A DNA stretch of 8,874 bases from a virus. Taxonomy: Monodnaviria; Loebvirae; Hofneiviricota; Faserviricetes; Tubulavirales; Inoviridae. Location: IMG/VR virus record IMGVR_UViG_2531839481_000001, positions 1-8,874 of that record; one strand, given 5' to 3'. Positions 1 to 8,874 of the stretch are shown here, piece by piece. The position numbers and the translations under genes are program-made. A model generated the notes under the pieces. The model was not told the DNA's origin and did no database searches. It saw nothing but the letters and a program-made list of their open reading frames with translations. Numbering within the stretch: position 1 is the stretch's first letter; each line of letters opens with the position of its first letter.

Positions 1-2
1 TT

Positions 3-34
3 GGTGCGCATAATGTCAACGCGTTATGTTGAAA
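3..34 (+). other. dif-like Xer recombination site (attL/attP1): exact dif XerC arm GGTGCGCATAA (3-13) + TGT, then 7 divergent bp and a degenerate XerD-like arm TTATGTTGAAA (24-34)
   Basis: E. coli dif is GGTGCGCATAA-TGTATA-TTATGTTAAAT (established). Window 3-16 matches the XerC arm plus the first 3 bp of the central region, then diverges where hybrid att sites of dif-integrating phages typically begin. Confidence 0.7.
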
Positions 35-68
35 AGGCCGCTGCGAAAATCGAATCCCGCAGCGGCCT
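35..68 (-). terminator. Perfect 11-bp stem hairpin (AGGCCGCTGCG / CGCAGCGGCCT, 12-nt loop); candidate rho-independent terminator for the - strand cargo gene and tip of the forked attP hairpin
   Basis: Arms 35-45 and 58-68 are exact reverse complements. On the - strand the stem is followed by TTTTC, and it lies just downstream of the stop of the CDS at 101-1030. Confidence 0.55.
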
Positions 69-70
69 CT

Positions 71-97
71 TTAGCATAACGTCATTGTGCGAACCAA
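71..97 (-). other. Inverted degenerate dif-like site (attP2-like): on - strand TTGGTTCGCACAA-TGACG-TTATGCTAA
   Basis: Reverse complement of 71-97 aligns with site 1: XerC-arm-like GGTTCGCACAA (85-95) is 9/11 to GGTGCGCATAA, XerD-arm-like TTATGCTAA (71-79). Positions 1-13 can pair with 85-97 at 11/13, forming an imperfect stem. Confidence 0.6.
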
Positions 98-100
98 TAG

Positions 101-1030
101 CTACTTTTTCGTATAACTCTCTTCGCATTTAGCCAAAAACAGCAGATTAGTAGCGGTTAAATGAAGGGTATAACTCGCTAAATACTCAGGAACTTTTGTT
201 ATTTCTGCCCCTTGTCCATGTCCACCTTCTTTATTTCGAATGGTTGGAATACCACTCTCAAGTAGAATTCTTATTGAAGAAAATTGATTCTGGAGGTATT
301 CAGGTACTAAATTATTTGCCAAACAACTGTTAATTAATTTTTTAGCTGTGTCAGTATCATTAAATTGCCAAGAATGTTTTTTATGTATGGCTTTCATTAG
401 ACTTTCAAAAGATTTGAGGCAATCATTTAAACATTCTTTATATCGCTGATGTCTATAATGCTCATGGGCGGATAAAAACTCATCGTTTGCTCCGTTATAA
501 CTCTTGTTCTTACCAAGAATCTGAAGCGTAGGCTTTACAACATCAGAATGAATGAATTGTGAGTCAACTTTAACCAACTCTCCTGACTCAAATTGATATC
601 CAAGACCTGCTTCTTTAAACCTGATATTAAGTTCTTCAATAGCATCATCAGGACTTTGCTTTACTGACCCTCTGAATTTCCACTCATTTGATCTTATATA
701 CCCGTCTATCAGTTTGAAACATATCTCAATGATATCCAAGCATTTTTCATGATCTCTCTCAGCTAGGAAATAGTCAAAAATTGCCCCGAAATTCGATTCA
801 GGATACTGTTTGAGAGAGAATACACCATATTCCTTACACAGCGTTTTATGAACGAGTCTGTAAAGCTTACTTGCTTCCGTTTCATAGTCACTATCTTCAC
901 CGATAGTATCTCTTACAATATGAACAACCTGAACACGAAATGCATTTGGTATATTCGTGTATTGGTAAACATCAGCTACTTCACCTCTTAATTTTTTTTG
1001 TCTTTTTGAAAATAATTCGAATATAGCCAA
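101..1030 (-). CDS. HEPN-like (Rx5H motif) abortive-infection-family candidate, AbiJ/Abi_C-like; phage cargo (moron) protein
   Basis: 309-aa ORF with no in-frame ATG until about residue 213; start is TTG at 1028-1030 preceded by GAGGA with 7-nt spacing. C-terminal RNKEGGHG fits the HEPN Rx4-6H signature. Markedly AT-rich compared with the phage backbone genes. Family assignment is from motif recognition only. Confidence 0.5.
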   Translation of the reverse strand: MAIFELFSKRQKKLRGEVADVYQYTNIPNAFRVQVVHIVRDTIGEDSDYETEASKLYRLVHKTLCKEYGVFSLKQYPESNFGAIFDYFLAERDHEKCLDIIEICFKLIDGYIRSNEWKFRGSVKQSPDDAIEELNIRFKEAGLGYQFESGELVKVDSQFIHSDVVKPTLQILGKNKSYNGANDEFLSAHEHYRHQRYKECLNDCLKSFESLMKAIHKKHSWQFNDTDTAKKLINSCLANNLVPEYLQNQFSSIRILLESGIPTIRNKEGGHGQGAEITKVPEYLASYTLHLTATNLLFLAKCEESYTKK

Positions 1031-1113: not shown

Positions 1114-1536
1114 TTACCAGTAATATGAGTTTCTTCTGTGCCACCAATAAAGAAGTCCGTATCCAATGATAAGAATTCCGAAAAACATCAACGACATTCC
1201 CCAGCCAGTTCCGTACCACGAAACCATATCATCGAAAACCAACCCACCCATTTCACGTACTCCGGCAGCTTCCTTAAGAATTGGTTTGAATACCGGAATC
1301 AGAAGGGCGATCGCCAGTGGAGCACCCCAGCGAACAAGACCTGTTTCCATTTTGATCCCGAAAAAGATCCCCGCACCGACAACAAGCAGCCAGACTATCA
1401 GGCCAGGCGCAGTTTCCAGTGCTGTTTGCCATTCAACATCGAAAGTTTTCATTAGCCAGGCAACAACTGCCAGACAGAAAGCAAATACGCCTACAACAAC
1501 CAGTTCAACGCCGCTTGTTTCGTTATTTCTACTCAT
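1114..1536 (-). CDS. Small integral membrane protein (about 4 predicted TM helices), unknown function; cargo partner of the HEPN-like protein
   Basis: 140-aa ORF with four long hydrophobic stretches (for example LVVVGVFAFCLAVVAWL, LIVWLLVVGAGIFFGI, GAPLAIALLIPVF, MSLMFFGILIIGYGLLYWW); ATG at 1534-1536 preceded by AAGGA with 8-nt spacing. The overlapping + strand ORFs are low-complexity P/S/T-rich antisense artefacts. Confidence 0.7.
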   Translation of the reverse strand: MSRNNETSGVELVVVGVFAFCLAVVAWLMKTFDVEWQTALETAPGLIVWLLVVGAGIFFGIKMETGLVRWGAPLAIALLIPVFKPILKEAAGVREMGGLVFDDMVSWYGTGWGMSLMFFGILIIGYGLLYWWHRRNSYYW

Positions 1537-1569
1537 CCTTTTGATCCTTTGTTGCTGTTCAAAATCCGC

Positions 1570-1607
1570 ACAATAAAGAACGTGCAGTGTAGGTAATACT
1601 GCACGTT
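1570..1607 (-). terminator. Rho-independent terminator candidate downstream of the repressor gene (10-bp perfect stem AACGTGCAGT / ACTGCACGTT, 9-nt loop, T-rich tail on - strand)
   Basis: Arms 1579-1588 and 1598-1607 are exact reverse complements; on the - strand the stem is followed by TTCTTTATTGT (1570-1578 complement). Confidence 0.55.
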
Positions 1608-1625
1608 AGTCTCATTCCTGAGACT
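1608..1625. other. Second short hairpin (7-bp stem AGTCTCA / TGAGACT, loop TTCC) immediately adjacent to the terminator
   Basis: Exact reverse-complement arms at 1608-1614 and 1619-1625. Confidence 0.4.
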
Positions 1626-1635
1626 GCTAAACCCT

Positions 1636-2082
1636 TTAATCTTCGCCTGACACTACTTTTTTCATAAACATTTTCGTACTGTAAGTATATGAACTTAATG
1701 CAGAAACTTGCCTTGCGAGAGCCAGAATATCTTGTTTATCCAGTGTTCTGATGTTCCACACAATGAAATTGTGGGCGTTAGTGGTTTCTTCATCAGTGTA
1801 ACCGTCTGCGGAAGTGATTAACTTCCTTTCAGTAGCTTCTTCTTTAACATCAATAGCATAGCCATAAGCAAGGGTGTTCAAGTCTGCACCAGTAATTTTA
1901 GCTATCTGAATTATGTCACTGAATTTAGGTTCAGTTTTGCCGGACGCTATTCTGACCAGTGTGCTAACGCTAATACCGGTTTTTTCGGCCAGTTCTTCAT
2001 AAGTCGAGTGTTCCAGAATTACCTTTTTGATACGTTCTGCTCTCTGCTTGTCCGCCATATCTTCATGCTCATTGTTGCCCAT
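1636..2082 (-). CDS. XRE/Cro-C1-type helix-turn-helix transcriptional regulator; candidate phage repressor divergent from gII
   Basis: 148-aa ORF with a classic HTH segment (EELAEKTGISVSTLVRIASGKTEPKFSDIIQIAKITG); ATG at 2080-2082 with GGAG 8 nt upstream; divergent orientation to the replication gene as in CTX-phi rstR/rstA. Confidence 0.8.
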   Translation of the reverse strand: MGNNEHEDMADKQRAERIKKVILEHSTYEELAEKTGISVSTLVRIASGKTEPKFSDIIQIAKITGADLNTLAYGYAIDVKEEATERKLITSADGYTDEETTNAHNFIVWNIRTLDKQDILALARQVSALSSYTYSTKMFMKKVVSGED

Positions 2083-2127
2083 CTACTTGGCTCCATCTTA
2101 ACAGTGGTTTTTCAATAGTTAGATTTG

Positions 2128-2184
2128 ATGCTCATTTCTGACAATTTAAACATTGCAAATGTATTGACTGTCAGAACTGAGCAT
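2128..2184. promoter_or_regulatory. 57-bp imperfect palindrome centred at 2156 between divergent repressor and gII; candidate operator and/or plus-strand origin hairpin
   Basis: Outer arms ATGCTCATTTCTGACA (2128-2143) and TGTCAGAACTGAGCAT (2169-2184) are reverse complements at 15/16; nested inner palindrome ACATT-gca-AATGT (2150-2162) shares the same centre. Confidence 0.55.
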
Positions 2185-2192
2185 ATTACATT
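2164..2192 (+). promoter_or_regulatory. Candidate sigma70 promoter for gII: -35 TTGACT (2164-2169), 17-bp spacer, -10 TACATT (2187-2192)
   Basis: 5/6 match at -35 and 4/6 at -10 with optimal spacing, about 60 bp upstream of the gII start; -35 overlaps the right arm of the palindrome. Confidence 0.4.
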
Positions 2193-2253
2193 GTGACCAT
2201 TCAATTTGCTCATAAATGACTATTGACACATATTTTGATGGGTGTGGCTACTT

Positions 2254-3306
2254 ATGATCGACTGGTTTACTGGAATCCTGCCTTGCACGCACCAACCGTT
2301 ACCGGCTGGTAGTGTCGTCAGCGTTGATGCTGATGGTGCAGTGGAGTGGGAAACAGTAAAACGGTTGACTGTTCGCGGTTCGTACGAATCTACAATGAAA
2401 GTAAGATCAGTTGGATCCGATGGCGAAGGCCGGGCAACACATCTTTATATTGATGGTAATCCGTCAAAATTTCTTCAGGGACATTCGGTTATTGGTTCCG
2501 ACGATTTGCAAGGACTGGTATTGACAGCTTACGCGAGAATACTGGCATTACTTCATATTCCCCATGACCTTCCGTCCTATCGTCAGGTAATGACAGGGCA
2601 ATATAAGGTTTCCCGTGTTGATATTAATTACATGTATTCATTGTCAACATTGGAAAATGTGCGGGCATGGCTTTATGCCGCAGAGTTTAAAGCAAAAACT
2701 CGTCATGGTCGCGCCTGTGGCAAAGGGGGAACGGTCTATTTGGGAAAAAACTCCCGTCGTTGGAGCCTGAAATTTTACTCTAAATATGATGAGCATACAT
2801 CTGGAAAAAAAGGGCACCAGATAGCAGATGAATTTGTTAACGCTGGTTTACTGGATTGGTCAAAAGATAAATTACGTATTGAATTAACATTAAGAACAAC
2901 TGAATTAATTGATTTGAATCTTACGCTTGGTAAAAACTGGAATATTGAGACGCCTAATAAAGTATTCTCTGACTATGTAGGGAGAATAGAAATGAATCAA
3001 AACACTATATTAACTGATGAAAAGATAATTAATCTCCCAAGAAAAATACAGTCTACATATTTGTTATGGAAGCAGGGCGCAAATATGAAAGAAATGCTTC
3101 CAAAGCCAACATTTTACAGGCATCGTAAAGAATTACTGTCTTTTGGTATAGATATTAATTTTTATTGTGAAGCCCCTGATTCAAATAATGTTATTCCATT
3201 AGTAAGAACACTTGAGGCTAAACCAGCCAAAATTCCATCATGGGTTTATGAGAAAGGTTTAATTTTCGATTATAACCGTATTTCACATGCCAGTAGCTGG
3301 CATTAA
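2254..3306 (+). CDS. gII: Replication initiation protein pII (rolling-circle nickase, Ff gene II family)
   Basis: Recalled M13 pII begins MID, as here (MIDWF) at ATG 2254. Shared motifs include PSKFLQGHSVIGSDDL (M13 PAKVLQGHNVFGTTDL) and NVIPLVR (M13 NVVPLVR). The ORF track extends to an upstream GTG at 2242, so the start is ambiguous by 12 nt. Confidence 0.85.
   Translation: MIDWFTGILPCTHQPLPAGSVVSVDADGAVEWETVKRLTVRGSYESTMKVRSVGSDGEGRATHLYIDGNPSKFLQGHSVIGSDDLQGLVLTAYARILALLHIPHDLPSYRQVMTGQYKVSRVDINYMYSLSTLENVRAWLYAAEFKAKTRHGRACGKGGTVYLGKNSRRWSLKFYSKYDEHTSGKKGHQIADEFVNAGLLDWSKDKLRIELTLRTTELIDLNLTLGKNWNIETPNKVFSDYVGRIEMNQNTILTDEKIINLPRKIQSTYLLWKQGANMKEMLPKPTFYRHRKELLSFGIDINFYCEAPDSNNVIPLVRTLEAKPAKIPSWVYEKGLIFDYNRISHASSWH
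2992..3306 (+). CDS. gX: pX, in-frame internal restart within gII (C-terminal 104 aa)
   Basis: In-frame ATG at 2992 gives a product starting MNQNTILTDEK, positionally and sequence-wise like M13 pX (MNIYDD...), with the same C-terminus as pII. Confidence 0.6.
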   Translation: MNQNTILTDEKIINLPRKIQSTYLLWKQGANMKEMLPKPTFYRHRKELLSFGIDINFYCEAPDSNNVIPLVRTLEAKPAKIPSWVYEKGLIFDYNRISHASSWH

Positions 3307-3317
3307 AGGAGAGTGAT

Positions 3318-3635
3318 ATGTCTAATTATGGTCTTTTCGTAAAAGGTAAGATGCTTGGTGCTCGTCAGCGTAATAAAATTAATGGGCAAGGTTATTATAA
3401 TGAAATTGGTATTGGCTTAGAGATCCCTGATGGCTTTGGTGGCACCAAGCAAGACCAGATCATTATCCGTGTATCACAAGCTCTGGTGAATTCCGGCGTA
3501 ATGAATCAGGCTAATAGCTTTATCGGAAAGTTAGTTCAGATCCCCGTTTATGTTCGTGTATGGTCAATGGAAGGTAGGGAAGGGGTAACTTATAACATTT
3601 CATCTGACGGTGGAATCACTGAAATAAAAGTTTAA
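3318..3635 (+). CDS. Gene-V-position protein, putative ssDNA-binding protein (function by synteny only)
   Basis: 105-aa ORF with strong RBS AGGAG (3307-3311) before ATG 3318, located between gII and gVII exactly where Ff gene V sits. The sequence does not obviously resemble recalled M13 pV. Confidence 0.5.
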   Translation: MSNYGLFVKGKMLGARQRNKINGQGYYNEIGIGLEIPDGFGGTKQDQIIIRVSQALVNSGVMNQANSFIGKLVQIPVYVRVWSMEGREGVTYNISSDGGITEIKV

Positions 3636-3637
3636 AT

Positions 3638-3724
3638 ATGGTTGATGTTATACAAATATTAATAGCGTCAGGCATTGTTATCTCATTTGGCCTCGGCGCA
3701 ATTACAGCGGGAGTTTTCCGTTAA
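3638..3724 (+). CDS. gVII: Minor coat protein pVII
   Basis: 28-aa hydrophobic peptide MVDVIQILIASGIVISFGLGAITAGVFR, comparable to recalled M13 pVII (…ALGIIAGGQR); start 3 nt after the gene-V stop; not in the ORF track because it is short. Confidence 0.7.
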   Translation: MVDVIQILIASGIVISFGLGAITAGVFR

Positions 3725-3819
3725 TGTATATAGCTTATTTCTTCGGGGCTTATACCTTTGGTTTTGCCCTTTTCTACGCGGTCGGTTCATTTAAATCATT
3801 TTCTGACCGCTTAATGTAA
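3724..3819 (+). CDS. gIX: Minor coat protein pIX
   Basis: 31-aa hydrophobic peptide MYIAYFFGAYTFGFALFYAVGSFKSFSDRLM; ATG overlaps the gVII stop (TAATG coupling), as in Ff. Confidence 0.65.
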   Translation: MYIAYFFGAYTFGFALFYAVGSFKSFSDRLM

Positions 3820-3838
3820 CCTTAATGGAGTTATTTAT

Positions 3839-4081
3839 ATGAAAGTTTTGTCTTTTGTTAAATCTAAAATTGCAGTAGCTTCAACAGCGCTTTTTGTTTC
3901 TGCGAGTTCTTTTGCGGCAGATGGGGCTACAGGCGGTACTGATTATGCAGGTCAGGCAATGGATGCATTACTGACTCAGGCAAATGATCTTATTGGTAAA
4001 GTATGGCCTGTCGTTGTTGCTGTGGTTGGTGCAGGCCTTGCCATTCGTATTTTTAAAAAATTCGCTTCCAAAGCAGTTTAA
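3839..4081 (+). CDS. gVIII: Major coat protein pVIII precursor
   Basis: 80-aa ORF with signal peptide ending SFA, acidic N-terminus, hydrophobic core and basic C-terminus [11 protein letters not shown]; the mature region resembles the recalled IKe-type coat (…WPVV…KKF.SKAV); GGAG RBS at 3827-3830. Confidence 0.9.
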
Positions 4082-4090
4082 AATTCACTT

Positions 4091-4114
4091 AGGGGCATTC
4101 GCTGCCCCTTTATT
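4091..4114 (+). terminator. Rho-independent terminator after gVIII (7-bp stem AGGGGCA / TGCCCCT, loop TTCGC, then TTTATT)
   Basis: Exact reverse-complement arms 4091-4097 and 4103-4109 followed by a T-rich tract; same position as the gene VIII terminator in Ff phages. Confidence 0.7.
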
Positions 4115-4127
4115 AAAGCGGGTTATT

Positions 4128-5372
4128 ATGAAAAGGAAAATATTAATTATTTCCTCTATTCTTATTTCTTCTTTTTCATATGCTGATTCATGGGAAAGCA
4201 TTACTAAATCTACTTTTCAAAGCTCTGCATATGCTGAAAGTAAGCAAATAACCAACCAAGATGGCACTAAACAAACTGTTTATTATATTGATGCAGCGAT
4301 GCAGGCTTCTGCCTGTCAGGGGGCTAAAGACAGTGCTCAGGGTGTTTTTACTCAGGTTAAACCAACTTATGAGGGAGTATGGCCTAACTCTGAATTCCGT
4401 CTTGTGTTTTCTGACGCTTGTACTTACAGCGACTCTCCAGGCCAGAAAGATAAATACTGGACTTTAACCGCTTATATTATTGGTGATATTCAACGATCCA
4501 TTCCTGATGAAAAACCTTCCGAGCCTACGCCTGAAGAGATTTGTGAAGCTAAACCCCCCGAAGAAGGTGTATTCAATAATGTCTATTCTTATGACGGCGA
4601 TCGTTATATTTATTATAACGGTTGTGAATATGAGGCCACTGGCGTCATTGTTTGCCAGAGTGATGGCACTGTTTGTGCTGCGACATGGAAGCCTACCGGA
4701 ACTGTAGCCGACCCTTCAGATAAGCCTTCTTCTCCTGCTGGCGATGGCGGTGATACTGGAGGCGGGGATACGGGTGGTGGTGATACTGGAGGAGGTGATA
4801 CAGGCGGTGGTAACCCAAGTGGCGGTTCTGGCGGTGGTAATGGCTCAAGTATTACCAAAGGAGATATTCAGTCAGCTATCGAAGGTGCTTCACCTAAAAT
4901 TGCCAGTGAGATTCATGATAAGTTAACAGAAAAAGACACCTCATCTGATGATAAAAAGTCGGCTGATGAACAGGCTAAAAATAATTTAAATCGTCTTGGT
5001 GACTCTATAAATAACCTTACTCGCGGAGCCGGACGTTTTGCTGATCCTTCTGGAGGTGATTCTCGTTATGGGAAGGGGGATTCTGAGTTAGATAGCGCTT
5101 CCACTTTAGCTGAATCTGAATTAGGAATTGCAAAGGATTCTCATGGCGCGTTATGGGAGGCTTTTTTAAATAAAGGTGCTATGTTGCCCAATTTACCCAA
5201 TGGTAATGGTTGTTCTGATTTTATCATTTTTGCAGGGGAGGTTTACCAGATTGACATTGGTTGCGATAAATTATTAACCATTAAAAATGCGCTTTCTTGG
5301 GTTTTTTATTGTTTAACATTCTGGTATGTCTTTACGTCTTTAACTTCATTGCTTCGTAAAGGGGGGGAATAA
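4128..5372 (+). CDS. gIII: Adsorption/minor coat protein pIII
   Basis: Start at ATG 4128 gives a signal peptide [19 protein letters not shown]; Gly-rich linker; the C-terminal membrane anchor (…[22 protein letters not shown]…[17 protein letters not shown]) resembles the recalled M13 pIII C-terminus. The ORF-track start at 3984 is an upstream in-frame extension through gVIII and the terminator. Confidence 0.85.
4752..4811 (+). repeat. 4 x 15-bp imperfect tandem repeat encoding (DTGGG)x4 in the pIII inter-domain linker
   Basis: Units gatactggaggcggg, gatacgggtggtggt, gatactggaggaggt, gatacaggcggtggt in the gIII frame. Confidence 0.8.
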
Positions 5373-5713
5373 TGCCTTTATTATTAGGTATCCCAGCATT
5401 GTTACGTTTTCTTATCGGTCTTGTCCCTTTATTTATTGGTTATATGGCGAGTTTTTTAGCCCGTCTTGCGACCAAAACAGGTTTAATAGCGGTTGCATTG
5501 ATCGCTTTAATTACAACAACTGTTACGCTTTTAATGCAATATCTTGCAGGGGTCATGTATAACGGTTTACCTGCTGATTTTTCACATTTAATGTCCTCTG
5601 TATTACCTGACCATTTTCAAGCCTGTATTAACGTTATTATGGTTACTCGCATCAGTGTTTTTGTTTTCGATTTAAAGAAAAAATTCCTTGATTATGCAAA
5701 CAGGGTGATTTAA
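5372..5713 (+). CDS. gVI: Minor coat protein pVI
   Basis: 113-aa hydrophobic protein beginning [14 protein letters not shown] (recalled M13 pVI begins MPVLLGIPLLLRFL); ATG overlaps the gIII stop (TAATG). Confidence 0.9.
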   Translation: MPLLLGIPALLRFLIGLVPLFIGYMASFLARLATKTGLIAVALIALITTTVTLLMQYLAGVMYNGLPADFSHLMSSVLPDHFQACINVIMVTRISVFVFDLKKKFLDYANRVI

Positions 5714-6808
5714 ATGGCTGTTCATGTAGTAACAGGTAAATTAGGCTCAGGTAAGACATTGGTTAGTGTTTCCAAAATACAGGAAAGACTTGCTAAGGGT
5801 TGTCCTGTTGCCACTAACCTAGACCTTAAATTGCATAATATGCCAATGGTAGGACGTTATGCGAAAAAAACGCGCGTTATTCGCGTTCCTGACAAGCCTT
5901 CATTAAATGATTTACTGGCTATTGGTATTGGAAATACATCTTACGATGAATCCCGCAATGGCCTTCTCGTGCTTGATGAATGTGGTACTTGGTTTAATTC
6001 CCGTTCATGGGGCGATAAAGACAGACAGCCGGTTATTGACTGGTTTTTACATGCCCGTAAATTAGGCTGGGATATTATATTTTTGATTCAGGATATTTCT
6101 ATTATGGATAAGCAAGCGCGTCTGGCGCTTGCTGAACATGTTGTGTATTGTCGCCGCTCTGATAAATTAAACATCCCTTTTATTGGCTCCATTATAAATT
6201 TAGTTTCAGGGGCGCGATTTTCCTTGCCAAAGGTACACTTTGGTATTGTTAAATATGGTGATAATGTTAATTCAATCACTGTTGATAAATGGATATATAC
6301 CGGTAAATCTCTTTACTCTGCTTACAATACCAAACAAACTTTCACAGATAACTATCCTCACGGCGCATTTTCGATTTTGCCACCATTTATCACACACGGT
6401 CAGTTTTCTGTTCACAGAGGGATTAATTATTATATGCGTCTCACTAAAATTTATTTTCGCAAATCGAACCGTCTTATATTAATGCTTTCTTTTCTGGCGC
6501 TGGGGCTTGGACTTGGTTTCTGGTTACAATCTGGTAAGAGTGCTGATGAACTCTCGGCTGTTAAATCTGCTCATGCTGAACAGGTGAGGGCGGCAATACC
6601 TGATAGTGCCGGCGATTTACCAAGACTCTCTATTAACTCTTTCTCTCAGCTTGGTTTTGATGTTTCCGTTACGTTTGTTGATGCTAAGGGTATGAAATAC
6701 CAGTATTTTGATTTAATTAAAGATGGTTATTCCGTTGATATTAAAGATGCCTGCCGAATTGTTATCAGAAAAGGCCGTTATTTACAAAACGTCACCTGCC
6801 AGGAGTAA
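5714..6808 (+). CDS. gI: Assembly ATPase pI (Zot-like, Walker A GKLGSGKT)
   Basis: 364-aa ORF with extended near-identity blocks to recalled M13 pI (…VTGKLGSGKTLVSV…LLVLDECGTWFN…QPIIDWFLHARKLGWDIIFL…); starts immediately after the gVI stop. Confidence 0.95.
   Translation: MAVHVVTGKLGSGKTLVSVSKIQERLAKGCPVATNLDLKLHNMPMVGRYAKKTRVIRVPDKPSLNDLLAIGIGNTSYDESRNGLLVLDECGTWFNSRSWGDKDRQPVIDWFLHARKLGWDIIFLIQDISIMDKQARLALAEHVVYCRRSDKLNIPFIGSIINLVSGARFSLPKVHFGIVKYGDNVNSITVDKWIYTGKSLYSAYNTKQTFTDNYPHGAFSILPPFITHGQFSVHRGINYYMRLTKIYFRKSNRLILMLSFLALGLGLGFWLQSGKSADELSAVKSAHAEQVRAAIPDSAGDLPRLSINSFSQLGFDVSVTFVDAKGMKYQYFDLIKDGYSVDIKDACRIVIRKGRYLQNVTCQE
6434..6808 (+). CDS. gXI: pXI, in-frame internal restart within gI
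   Basis: In-frame ATG at 6434 gives MRLTKIYFRKSNRL…, matching the position and sequence of recalled M13 pXI (MKLTKIYLKKFSRV…), with a TM segment following. Confidence 0.6.
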   Translation: MRLTKIYFRKSNRLILMLSFLALGLGLGFWLQSGKSADELSAVKSAHAEQVRAAIPDSAGDLPRLSINSFSQLGFDVSVTFVDAKGMKYQYFDLIKDGYSVDIKDACRIVIRKGRYLQNVTCQE

Positions 6809-6815
6809 TATTGTT

Positions 6816-8081
6816 ATGCGTTTATTTTTCATTGCTATCTTATTCACTTATTCTTTTTGCGTTTCTGCTGAGACTGTTAATCTTAATAATTCATCCGTTC
6901 GCTCATTTGTCCAGTGGTATTCATCAAAAACTGGCAAGCCCGTTATTGTTAACCCTGATGTTAAAGGAGCCGTAACGGTATTTAATGCTGATGTTAATCC
7001 CACAAATATTGATAATTTCTTTAAATCTGTACTGAATGCTAACGGATTTGTCATGCTTTCCGGCAATCCTGCGGTAGTCTCTTTGCCGTCAAAATTACCA
7101 TCACAGATGGCGTCAGACCTTGATGATGCTGATATTCGGCCTTATGACTCTTTCCCGTCTGAGCCATCTTATCAGTCAGCGCCAGTGGTGTTTACTGTCA
7201 GAAATTTTAAGCTGACAAAAGTAAGATCGTCTGATGTTCAACAACTGGTTAAAATTTATCTGGATTCTAATGGCGGTGGTAATGTTGTGGATTATCCAGG
7301 CAATAACTCCCTGATTGTTTCCGCACCTGACGAGCTGCTTCCCGTCCTTTCCGATTTCATCAATTCAGTGGATGTTGCCCGCGATCAGGTTTTGATTCAG
7401 TCGCTGATGTTTGAAACCAGTCTGTCGGATGGTGTTGATTTGTCGTTTGCAGCCGGTTCTGCATCCGGGCATAAAGTAGCAGGGGGTTTTAATACTTCAG
7501 CGTTGGGTAGCGCGTTGTCGACTGCAGGCGGCTCTTTTGGCATTTTTGATGGTAATGTTCTGGCCGTATCCCTGCGTGCGGTGCAGAGTAACTCCCGGTC
7601 TAAGGTGATTTCAACGCCTCGGATTCTTACTCAGTCTGGTCAGACAGGCTATATTTCTGTTGGTAAAAATGTACCCTTTATCACGGGTAAAGTTACGGGT
7701 GAATCTGCCGGGGTAAATAATCCGTTTCAGACCATTGAGCGTCATGATGTTGGCGTATCTCTGAAGGTGACGCCTGTTGTTATGGGGAACGGCCAGCTTG
7801 TACTTACTATTGATACCCGCGCTGATTCCATCAGCAACGATGATCAGGCATCTGATATTATTACGAACCAACGTCAGATACAGACTACAGTTCAGATTAA
7901 GGATGGCCAGACGCTCTTACTCGGTGGGCTGATTGATTCATCATCCAGCAATGCTGACCGTTCTGTACCGTTTATCAGTAAAATTCCGGTGATTGGCTGG
8001 CTTTTCAGGAGTAAAGCTGACAGTAATGAGCAACGTATTATGTATGTCCTGCTGACCGCTCATATTATTCGCGCGCTTTGA
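6816..8081 (+). CDS. gIV: Outer-membrane secretin pIV
   Basis: Start at ATG 6816 (AGGAG at 6801-6805) gives a signal peptide MRLFFIAILFTYSFCVSA. Strong similarity to recalled M13 pIV (…SVGKNVPFITGKVTGESAGVNNPFQTIER… versus M13 …SVGQNVPFITGRVTGESANVNNPFQTIER…). The ORF-track start at 6723 is an in-frame extension overlapping gI. Confidence 0.95.
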   Translation: MRLFFIAILFTYSFCVSAETVNLNNSSVRSFVQWYSSKTGKPVIVNPDVKGAVTVFNADVNPTNIDNFFKSVLNANGFVMLSGNPAVVSLPSKLPSQMASDLDDADIRPYDSFPSEPSYQSAPVVFTVRNFKLTKVRSSDVQQLVKIYLDSNGGGNVVDYPGNNSLIVSAPDELLPVLSDFINSVDVARDQVLIQSLMFETSLSDGVDLSFAAGSASGHKVAGGFNTSALGSALSTAGGSFGIFDGNVLAVSLRAVQSNSRSKVISTPRILTQSGQTGYISVGKNVPFITGKVTGESAGVNNPFQTIERHDVGVSLKVTPVVMGNGQLVLTIDTRADSISNDDQASDIITNQRQIQTTVQIKDGQTLLLGGLIDSSSSNADRSVPFISKIPVIGWLFRSKADSNEQRIMYVLLTAHIIRAL

Positions 8082-8082
8082 T

Positions 8083-8120
8083 GGGGCCGTGGCGGGTGCG
8101 TTAAGCCCCGGTACGGCCCC
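8083..8120 (+). other. GC-rich extended stem-loop immediately after the gIV stop; candidate gene-IV terminator / packaging-signal-type hairpin of the intergenic region
   Basis: GGGGCCGT (8083-8090) pairs with ACGGCCCC (8113-8120); inner CGGG/CCCG adds a further 4 bp; no U-tract follows, so classification as a pure intrinsic terminator is uncertain. Confidence 0.45.
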
Positions 8121-8230
8121 AGCAAGAGCCGGATTTTACGTCTCACCACGGAGCCTCTATATGGCCTTAAAACTGACAGGATATGAACAGAAAGACATCT
8201 TCTAGGTGATTCAATTACTTAGAGGTTTTT

Positions 8231-8479
8231 ATGTCTGTAAAAAGCAGGGTACGCGACCGCCTTCCCAGTGGTCATCTGAAGTCTTATCGACGTGTTGGTT
8301 CACACTTTACCAGTTGTTCCAGATGGTTTGATAAATCGCCGTCCTGGTATCGTAATATGATGTTGACCCGACCGGAACGCCGTGAAGTCAGAAAGCTTCT
8401 TAATCAGGTCTTGCATGGTCGTGATGCTGACGGTATAGCATTTCCTGTCAGTAACAAGCCGTTTGCATGGTGGTGGTGA
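8231..8479 (+). CDS. Hypothetical small basic Arg/Trp-rich protein (82 aa), unknown function
   Basis: ATG at 8231 preceded by AGAGG with 5-nt spacing; no similarity to Ff proteins that I recognise; lies in the region that is non-coding intergenic DNA in Ff phages. Confidence 0.35.
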   Translation: MSVKSRVRDRLPSGHLKSYRRVGSHFTSCSRWFDKSPSWYRNMMLTRPERREVRKLLNQVLHGRDADGIAFPVSNKPFAWWW

Positions 8480-8858
8480 ACTTTTTAGCCGCTAAAATTT
8501 AATACTTACGAAGTTATCGTAAACGCCGGTCAGTGACAAAACTCGTTTTGTTGCTGTCCGGGGTTGGCCAAGCCGTACAGTTTTCATTTTGAGTGTTATG
8601 GCTGATTCGGCGCGGCAGTGTTCATCTTGTCTGGAATTGGTGTCTTTAGCGCTGGGGAAGTTTTCATGTATCAGGTACAGATTTACCAACTGCAACTGGA
8701 TGAACAGGCCTGATTGGTGAGGTCAGGCCGTTCACTTACTGCTGACAGGCATTTGATTCTGATTCGTTTGGAGAAACGGATAATTTTGAATCATTGTCGA
8801 TAGTAACCAGTTGACGGCCAGTGTCAACGATTCCAGCCAGATTCCTTCTGATCCCATA

Positions 8859-8874
8859 TTGGTGCGCATAATGT
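8859..8874 (+). other. Second copy of the dif XerC arm (TTGGTGCGCATAATGT), truncated by the window edge; attR / chromosomal dif candidate
   Basis: Identical to positions 1-16; contains GGTGCGCATAA + TGT of E. coli dif. Confidence 0.7.

Follow-up and report, generated by a model that had tools for sequence, protein, structure and literature searches.

Two inverted dif-like sites form a probable CTXphi-type folded attP in a mosaic inovirus prophage of Enterobacterales

The stretch of DNA analysed here, 8,874 nucleotides in all and called the window below, is a complete inovirus prophage (Table 1). Its first 16 nucleotides recur exactly as its last 16, and the window is thus a prophage that starts at attL and breaks off after 14 nucleotides of attR. 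The attachment region sits between the end of the rightward genes and the leftward regulator. No match to the Ff (+) origin nick sequence, GTTCTTTAATAGTGGACT, was found in the window with up to three mismatches, and gene orientation served instead to decide which strand is (+): the window's + strand is the coding one, and in inoviruses the coding strand is the packaged (+) strand. Rfam, at its gathering thresholds, recognised no family anywhere in the window.

Table 1. Features of the window, from left to right
Feature	Position	Strand	Description
Putative folded attP(+), whole	1-97	+	one long imperfect hairpin: XerC-arm stem, top-strand bulge, XerD-arm stem, tip hairpin
Left direct-repeat copy (attL core)	1-16	+	TTGGTGCGCATAATGT, 16 nt; exact match to 8859-8874
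Site 1 XerC-binding arm	3-13	+	GGTGCGCATAA; exact match to E. coli dif
Site 1 central region	14-23	+	TGTCAACGCG, 10 nt; TGT at 14-16 common to the dif centre TGTATA; 16-20 predicted as unpaired bulge
Site 1 XerD-like arm	24-34	+	TTATGTTGAAA; 9/11 against dif TTATGTTAAAT
Tip hairpin	35-68	+	perfect 11-bp stem 35-45/58-68 (A35-G45 with C58-T68); variable 12-nt loop 46-57
Site 2 XerD-like arm	69-79	-	TTATGCTAAAG; 9/11 against dif; pairs with 24-34
Site 2 central region	80-84	-	TGACG, 5 nt; direct read
Site 2 XerC-like arm	85-95	-	GGTTCGCACAA; 9/11 against dif; pairs with 3-13
Cargo gene	101-1030	-	AbiJ_NTD4 + DUF7014 (AbiJ-like)
140-aa ORF	1114-1536	-	
HTH regulator	1636-2082	-	
gII	2242-3306	+	rolling-circle replication initiator; Pfam Phage_CRI 1.5e-73, G2P_X_C 1.2e-33
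gV	3318-3635	+	
gVIII	3839-4081	+	
gIII	to 5372	+	
gVI	5372-5713	+	
gI	5714-6808	+	Zot-like
gIV	to 8081	+	secretin
Right direct-repeat copy	8859-8874	+	phage-borne XerC arm plus TGT; exact repeat of 1-16

Judged by its closest matches, the phage is a mosaic in which a YpfPhi/CUS-1-like attP, regulator, gII and gV are joined to I2-2/IKe-like morphogenesis genes. Aligned with the YpfPhi locus of Y. pestis (L003), the window matched only at 1-110 (93%), 1556-3641 (90%) and 8160-8874 (78-91%), 31.5% of its length; the HTH regulator, gII and gV are 96% identical in amino acid sequence to those of YpfPhi from Y. pestis NCTC5923, and the intergenic region is YpfPhi-like, too. The morphogenesis block, from 3641 to 8160, is not: tblastn found no YpfPhi match for gVIII, gIII, gVI or gI, and gIV matched at 26% amino acid identity over half its length, while all five morphogenesis proteins (gVIII, gIII, gVI, gI and gIV) are 51-72% identical to those of I2-2 (L041) and IKe (L038). 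When the whole window was searched against the phage collection for near-identical sequences, the sole match was gene I of Lineavirus I2-2, at 76% nucleotide identity, and a distant search of that collection with bases 1-100 gave no match. The membership of the CUS-1/YpfPhi group that an earlier note on this DNA had suggested thus stands for the attP, the regulator, gII, gV and the intergenic region, but not for the morphogenesis genes.

The combination of I2-2/IKe-like morphogenesis with a YpfPhi-like replication module assigns the phage, on these comparisons, to the published UPphi group of Lineavirus-like, dif-integrating prophages of Enterobacterales (PMC7307601). Like the members of that group, the window has the same gene order, reverse ORFs just after a dif-like start and a terminal repeat of about 15 nt of dif; it differs from them in its cargo gene, which is AbiJ-like, and in a 10-nt variant of the site 1 centre. 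We compared it with the group through ECONIH2, a published UPphi reference host, which matches the window at 85.7% identity over 73% of its length, holds three copies with the same hairpin attP and a regenerated dif, and encodes morphogenesis proteins 82-94% identical in amino acids to those of the window. For the start of the genome, the paper defining the group mentions 'a copy of the dif site' and nothing of a second, inverted site or a fold; the terms attP, hairpin, inverted and fold are absent from its text (PMC7307601).

The cargo gene lies directly beside the attachment region. It is unlike the cargo of the Y. pestis phage, and E. coli NGF1 carries the window's cargo on a CUS-like backbone. 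Across relatives, the slot beside attP holds different candidates for anti-phage defence: AbiJ-like/PDC-S32, SIR2/PDC-S25, and a ThsB-like TIR protein with PDC-M50A.

Read directly, bases 1-100 have the sequence TTGGTGCGCATAATGTCAACGCGTTATGTTGAAAAGGCCGCTGCGAAAATCGAATCCCGCAGCGGCCTCTTTAGCATAACGTCATTGTGCGAACCAATAG and contain two dif-like sites in inverted orientation. When compared with the E. coli dif sequence (PMC2731167), site 1 agrees with its earlier description as a site at 3-34 with the exact XerC arm followed by a degenerate XerD-like arm, the latter matching at nine of 11 positions. The inverted and diverged second site is likewise present, although it spans 69-95 and not 71-97, as had been proposed. 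Both of the pairing counts given before are correct: positions 1-13 form Watson-Crick pairs with 85-97 at 11 of 13 positions, the exceptions being G6.A92 and T11.G87, and a perfect 11-bp hairpin lies within 35-68. The XerC-arm duplex of the window variant contains one mismatch (G6.A92) and one wobble, and the XerD-arm duplex two wobbles and one mismatch. In an A+T-rich window such as this one, single arms are no more frequent than chance predicts when up to two mismatches are allowed; composite sites, consisting of a XerC arm, a spacer of 4-13 nt and a XerD arm, are a different matter, with two seen, inverted and within 95 nt, against an expectation of 0.008 per window in dinucleotide-shuffled windows searched on both strands.

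The lengths of the two centres, 10 and 5 bp, were reread from the sequence and came out as reported before; a canonical duplex Xer substrate has a centre of 6-7 bp, and neither site is one. Homology to the dif centre is confined to the side of XerC cleavage, where the TGT of 14-16 equals the first three nucleotides of TGTATA. If the position is carried over from the mechanism of CTXphi and dif (PMC4246890), the predicted point of XerC cleavage falls between A13 and T14.

Folded as single-stranded DNA, nucleotides 1-100 of the + strand reach -32.4 kcal/mol, compared with -12.5 +/- 2.2 for shuffled sequences (z -8.9), and none of 200 shuffles was as stable; the stable structure anticipated by the earlier note is thus there. 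The minimum free energy structure pairs 1-5 with 93-97 and 7-15 with 83-91, leaves a 5-nt bulge on the top strand (16-20), resumes with 21-29 paired to 74-82, and passes through a short irregular segment into the 11-bp tip. In this model, the arms of both sites pair with each other in the (+) strand and would present XerC and XerD duplexes around an irregular centre. The anticipated fork, on the other hand, did not appear: one hairpin, stacked coaxially on the stem, takes up the roughly 36 nt that separate the sites, and the whole is straight. The - strand folds less stably, at -29.9 kcal/mol.

We recovered 24 distinct variants of the attP from E. coli, Yersinia, Brenneria, Photorhabdus, Phytobacter and IMG/VR contigs, and all the complete ones among them adopt the same fold. 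Covariation was assessed in an alignment (A1) of 14 variants, with 40 proposed pairs. Of the pair cells, 94.5% are paired, compared with 30-51% when the partners are slid by one to three columns. Double-sided, compensatory changes affect 10 pairs, against 3.2 +/- 1.3 in shuffles, none of 500 reaching 10; given that the variants are related, this shuffle control overstates the significance and is not a probability, and it is the slid controls and the pattern of constraint that bear the weight. Four of these pairs belong to the tip stem, one is T30-A73 within the XerD arms, and another four lie in the XerC arms and beyond them. The tip stem has 99.4% of its cells paired and a loop whose sequence is free to vary; the XerC-arm stem (helix 1) is 92.9% paired; and T30-A73 (alignment columns 31 and 74) has become A-T in Brenneria L006 and in L035. 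The XerC arm and the adjoining TGT show no variation in the 14 variants, and the predicted bulge, 5-6 nt following TGT, is hypervariable in both sequence and length. Across the relatives, the centre of site 1 measures 10-11 nt overall and that of site 2 measures 5 nt. An invariant XerC arm and TGT, a hypervariable bulge and a compensated tip stem make up the pattern that a folded attP predicts. Covariation of an inverted repeat, taken alone, would look the same for a hairpin of single-stranded DNA, a cruciform, an RNA hairpin or a symmetric protein-binding site.

The variants also distinguish between the two strands. The + fold beats the - fold in all 14, by a mean of 2.3 kcal/mol, and G.T cells, which pair on the + strand only, outnumber A.C cells by 50 to 10 (columns, 10 to 1). 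The signal is modest and carried mainly by three conserved wobble positions; it suggests that selection acts on the fold of the + strand.

Such an arrangement is known from CTXphi of Vibrio cholerae, whose attP we located by an attP1 sequence, matching the CTXphi records at 100%, and then folded in the same manner. The primary studies of its attP(+) are reportedly those of Val et al. 2005 and Das et al. 2010. The CTXphi region folds at -45.6 kcal/mol (z -7.6) into a XerC stem, a top segment unpaired from TGTGG onward, a XerD stem (TTATGTTGAGG) and two tip hairpins, and the comparison with CTXphi and YpfPhi that the earlier note had called for shows the same order of elements in the former and 93% nucleotide identity to the latter. 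In CTXphi as in the window, two inverted dif-like sites lie on the coding (+) strand, between the end of the structural or accessory genes and a reverse repressor gene; neither site has a canonical centre, and a XerC duplex is followed by a top bulge of about 5 nt and a XerD duplex. The centres, top and bottom, measure 12 and 7 nt in CTXphi (the second also being counted as 5-7), 10 and 5 in the window, and 11 and 5 in YpfPhi. TGT follows the XerC arm in all three, matching the host dif in CTXphi and the window alike, and the XerD-like arm starts with TTATGTTGA in both, its first nine bases being equal in the attP1 arm TTATGTTGAGG. The differences are also plain. Outside the arms, there is no sequence homology between the two; CTXphi has about 90 nt between its sites and two tip hairpins, the 'fork', in contrast to the about 36 nt and the one coaxial hairpin of the window; its TGT is unpaired, whereas T14 and G15 of the window are paired in the hairpin; and the host of the window is an enterobacterium, for which the CTXphi mechanism is presumed by likeness.

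With YpfPhi of Y. pestis and CUS-1 of E. coli O18:K1:H7 the likeness is much closer, as the cassette is the same: across the 93% identity over 1-110 to Y. pestis, the tip hairpin, site 2 and the XerD arms are identical, and the site 1 centre differs, TGTACGACTCG (11 nt) standing in place of TGTCAACGCG (10 nt). For YpfPhi, an inverted pair of XerC/XerD sites has been described and a CTX-like model proposed (PMC4266046), and YpfPhi and CUS-1 have been placed among the CTXphi-type members (PMC4246890, PMC4266046, PMC3442271); the published folding model of YpfPhi is itself a prediction. Sites of this kind have been described before, and the window's cassette hardly departs from the YpfPhi one. 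The new points are small: UPphi carries a second site with a predicted fold, and the cassette is common to backbones with unrelated replication proteins. The layout can also recur with other sequences: in L004 (Klebsiella spallanzanii) and L005, gII is 93-96% identical, and the attPs, unrelated in sequence, have the same layout with centres of 9-11 versus 6 nt.

The earlier note had suggested looking for the element at dif in related genomes, and there it is. In E. coli SCPM-O-B-12142, the prophage stands directly after hipBA, in the neighbourhood of dif, as a tandem, with the hairpin region both at the junction with the chromosome and at the junction between copies. The last copy in strain A20, like that in ECONIH2, ends in ...GGTGCGCATAATGT-ATATTATGTTAAAT, a perfect 28-bp dif. 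A perfect dif is present in 11 of the fetched loci and points the same way as the phage genes in all 11; in L001, L002, L102 and other relatives, the two phage sites lie at one end of the prophage and an intact dif lies at the other. Tandem arrays are frequent (L001, L003, L033, L099, L100 and L102), and attL retains its 10-11-bp centre. The window itself ends at nucleotide 14 of attR, and we infer from these relatives that it, too, would have a regenerated dif. At 80% coverage or more, a distant search with the 100 nt found the cassette in 230 of 5426 complete E. coli genomes.

The junctions also locate the crossover. To the left of the shared TTGGTGCGCATAATGT lies chromosome at attL and phage at the internal junctions; to its right lies phage at attL and dif at attR. 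Since the flanks switch on both sides of TTGGTGCGCATAATGT, the crossover falls inside those 16 nt, which hold the predicted XerC cleavage point, and junctions of this form would result from a cut in the (+) strand behind the site 1 XerC arm and insertion of that strand into the top strand of dif. A GGTGCACATAA arm at the first Y. pestis junction (L003, position 1011) was considered as a host-derived XerC arm that could map the crossover and was rejected, as the sequence upstream of it resembles the right end of a phage; it is probably the junction of another phage or of a remnant. The XerC arm given for Y. pestis CO92 is GGTGCGCATAA (PMC2731167).

We consider it quite probable that bases 1-97 are a CTXphi-type folded attP(+) of an integrative filamentous phage that uses the host Xer recombinases (IMEX). 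Such an attP had been proposed from the two inverted dif-like sites, and the proposal is now backed by the fold, the covariation, the strand asymmetry, the dif-integrated relatives and the fold of CTXphi. The properties of the CTXphi attP(+) have been reviewed, and the mechanism is proven for that phage (PMC4246890); by analogy with it, we infer XerC catalysis, a single-strand route, replicative resolution and irreversibility for the phage of the window. In the circular (+) single-stranded DNA, which would come from gII-driven rolling-circle replication or from infection, site 1 would pair with the inverted site 2, and the hairpin would offer a duplex XerC arm (3-13/85-95) and a duplex XerD arm (24-34/69-79). 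The centre between the arms would be irregular, its top strand of 10 nt facing a bottom strand of 5 nt and bulging by about 5 nt, and the 11-bp hairpin would cap the stem. Host XerC and XerD would bind this mimic of dif and form a synapse with the chromosomal dif; XerC would then cut the top strand after GGTGCGCATAA and swap one pair of strands, an exchange that the TGT common to the dif centre TGTATA may stabilise. As the XerD side lacks homology, a second exchange would not follow, and the pseudo-Holliday junction would be converted into a prophage by replication, with both dif-like sites at the left end and a perfect dif rebuilt at the right. With centres of 10 and 5 bp, neither site should be usable as a duplex, integration would be essentially irreversible, and new phage would have to arise by rolling-circle replication from tandem copies.

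The main rival to this reading is integration of the kind used by VGJphi, in which the double-stranded replicative form would recombine with dif through site 1 alone, with first-strand exchange by XerC and replicative resolution, the second site and the hairpin being irrelevant. VGJphi and TLCphi also use the host XerCD and dif and have no integrase of their own, and the junctions by themselves do not separate the two routes: use of a duplex site 1, with its perfect XerC arm and TGT homology, predicts the same junctions and the same dif orientation. The differences lie in the site itself. VGJphi has a single duplex site with a 7-bp centre and exchanges first through XerC, whereas the window has two inverted sites, their centres 10 and 5 nt long, and a spacing of 10-11 bp separates the site 1 arms of all variants, where dif has 6 bp and VGJphi 7 bp (PMC4246890). 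A VGJphi-type prophage, moreover, would be flanked by two usable sites, while attL here keeps the 10-11-bp centre; and both the conservation of a second site that covaries with the first and the greater stability of the + strand would be left without explanation. We regard this route as improbable, though it is the foremost of the alternatives.

Somewhat less probable again is that the inverted repeat serves mainly as a signal for transcription or replication, be it an intrinsic terminator of the leftward cargo operon ending at 101, a packaging signal or a minus-strand origin, and that only bases 3-13 are related to dif, as the scar of a junction. Hairpins of similar size are packaging and origin signals in Ff phages, and on the - strand the GC-rich, 11-bp tip stem is indeed followed by TTTTCAAC, directly downstream of the stop codon of the gene at 101-1030. 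A terminator scan made no call, however, the loop being 12 nt long and only four T residues following the stem; the place of the Ff packaging signal, right behind gIV, is taken by a separate hairpin; each of the four arms agrees with dif at 9-11 of its 11 positions, and the arms stand in the correct order and inverted orientation; and the cassette moves together with unrelated replication and morphogenesis modules and is thus not tied to one origin or packaging system. A role of the tip hairpin as a terminator on the - strand is possible as a second function, compatible with its role in a folded attP.

Integration in the manner of TLCphi, with a XerD-first exchange at a degenerate XerD arm and a phage-encoded activator of Xer, is very unlikely. 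The XerD-like arms are degenerate at their outer positions, and the window contains several small ORFs of unknown function, but no XafT-like gene was recognised among the annotated ones, and the homology to the dif centre lies on the XerC side only (TGT), with the XerD side (..CGCG versus ATA) non-homologous and hypervariable; and TLCphi combines its degenerate XerD arm with a dif-like centre in a single duplex site (PMC4246890), in contrast to the two inverted sites here. An artefact, in the form of an assembly overlap or a chance palindrome of no biological role, might be suspected from the identical 16 nt at the two ends of the window, but is already refuted by the real dif junctions, by the chance expectation of 0.008 per window, and by the presence of the same structure, at 80% coverage or more, in the 230 complete E. 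coli genomes as well as in Yersinia, Brenneria, Photorhabdus, Phytobacter and IMG/VR contigs.

A part of the region is found in another setting as well. Bases 25-98, that is, the sequence without the XerC arm and centre of site 1, occur in about 700 further E. coli records, including some 489 plasmid places, where the fragment lies just inside the left end of an element of about 2.8 kb of the IS1202/ISNCY family. The ends of this element read 5'-TGT...ACA-3', and it is accompanied by a 5-bp duplication; the end away from the fragment lies at a distance of 5 bp from a XerC arm, either that of dif or that of a dif-like site on a plasmid. As passenger it carries either a SIR2 protein (PDC-S25) or an AbiJ-like relative of the window's cargo protein. 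Insertion adjacent to dif has been published for the ISAba32/ISKpn21 subgroup (PMC10132070; bioRxiv 10.1101/2022.12.17.520857).

The complete cassette, at 84-100% nucleotide identity, was found on at least five inovirus backbones whose replication modules are unrelated and whose assembly proteins are either unrelated or 24-65% identical (the divergent backbones being those of L035, L036, L042-L045 and L097-L099), and also on a 3-kb element whose sole encoded protein is a Rep_trans replication protein. It is conceivable, if rather doubtful at present, that the hairpin attP of about 97 nt is a portable, free-standing integration cassette and that dif of Enterobacterales acts as a hub for the exchange of defence genes, with single-strand Xer integration bringing genes in and dif-targeting insertion sequences carrying them off to plasmids.

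Overall, the attP itself is a confirmatory finding rather than a surprising one, and there is more to be asked about how the cassette spreads as a module and about its neighbouring defence cargo. The folded attP nevertheless offers a concrete mechanism of integration for prophages that are widespread in E. coli and other Enterobacterales, UPphi having been known only as carriers of a dif copy. The natural series of variants, with its fixed TGT, free bulge and compensated stems, is a ready mutational map, and with E. coli as the host, the CTXphi mechanism becomes testable with the best-characterised XerCD/FtsK system. A two-site hairpin of the YpfPhi type predicts that these phages would integrate irreversibly, as single-stranded DNA and by XerC only, and that their production of new phage would depend on tandem copies.

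The genome is a clean mosaic of two blocks. The intergenic region, attP, regulator, gII and gV (window 1-110, 1556-3641 and 8160-8874) are YpfPhi/CUS-like and form a contiguous block once the genome is drawn as a circle, and the morphogenesis block (3641-8160) is I2-2/IKe-like. The inverted repeat at the end of gIV (features are listed in the table) occupies the position at which Ff phages have a packaging signal or terminator. The small ORF that follows gives no match in Pfam or PHROG; it is kept at 78-94% at the amino acid level in YpfPhi, the NGF1 prophage of E. coli, Brenneria and further relatives in UPphi, the published dif-integrating group that includes this phage, and it moves together with the YpfPhi-like intergenic block. 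The tandem repeats code for a linker rich in glycine within g3p, the attachment protein, and the UPphi study describes this repeat/linker region as the most variable one (PMC7307601).

The phages of L004 and L005 have a 93-96% identical gII and attPs that share the window's architecture, with tip and central sequences unrelated to it; in L005, the tip is a genuine fork of two hairpins. The attP and replication modules therefore swap independently of each other. The window-type cassette itself recurs in E. coli E300010, where two copies bound a 3-kb element at dif, the chromosomal XerC/XerD site. This element codes solely for small ORFs and a Rep_trans replication protein, morphogenesis genes are absent from it, and a different inovirus adjoins it, after it; it looks like a satellite IMEX (an integrative element exploiting the host Xer recombinases) that employs the window's attP cassette. 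In Y. pestis NCTC5923, the host of YpfPhi (locus L003), the XerC arms of two successive junctions differ in a single base, GGTGCACATAA at 1011-1021 vs GGTGCGCATAA at 9753-9763, and because the sequence upstream of the first junction resembles a phage right end, an older phage copy or remnant probably precedes it.

Part of the cassette (window 25-98: the first XerD arm, the tip hairpin and the entire inverted second site) is also found just within the left end of an IS1202/ISNCY-family element of ~2.8 kb, and among complete E. coli genomes the remnant occurs at ~489 plasmid places. TGT...ACA termini bound the element, which comes with a 5-bp duplication (ATGTT); its far end lies 5 bp off a XerC arm, either that of dif or that of a dif-like site on a plasmid, and its passenger gene is SIR2 or AbiJ-like. 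Targeting of dif has already been published for the ISAba32/ISKpn21 subgroup (PMC10132070; bioRxiv 10.1101/2022.12.17.520857); the inovirus attP remnant within the passenger region appears to be unpublished.

Immediately past the stop codon that closes the leftward cargo gene (gene end at 101), the minus strand carries the tip's GC-rich stem of 11 bp and then TTTTCAAC, and the hairpin may double as an intrinsic terminator; a terminator scan of the window did not call it (35-68) because its loop is 12 nt long. This cargo gene, encoding an AbiJ_NTD4+DUF7014 protein, is the immediate neighbor of attP. Relatives have alternative defence candidates in the same place, either SIR2 (PDC-S25) or a ThsB-like TIR protein with PDC-M50A. 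The position next to attP therefore looks like a slot for defence cargo in dif-integrating inoviruses.

Coordinates of the features in the window and in related loci
Feature	Sequence	Position	Strand	Remark
Cargo gene, AbiJ_NTD4+DUF7014	window	101-1030	-	PADLOC PDC-S32, 'STM4504/CBY_0614 family'; cargo-slot locus
Cargo-slot locus	L095	6073-7425
Cargo-slot locus	L002, relative prophage at dif	2605-3910
15-nt tandem repeats	window	4745-4841		GGnGGnGATAC-like
19-nt inverted repeat	window	8078-8125		84% complementary, 10-nt spacer; starts at gIV stop codon
82-aa ORF	window	8231-8479	+	between gIV and attP
attP, unrelated sequence	L004, Klebsiella spallanzanii	4986-5113
attP, unrelated sequence	L005, phage	1-110
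3-kb element at dif	L097, E. coli E300010	12001-15110		bounded by two hairpin attP copies
IS with attP remnant	L096, plasmid pLD22-1-135kb	4946-7757
IS with attP remnant	L095, E. coli WCHEC4533 chromosome	5934-8712
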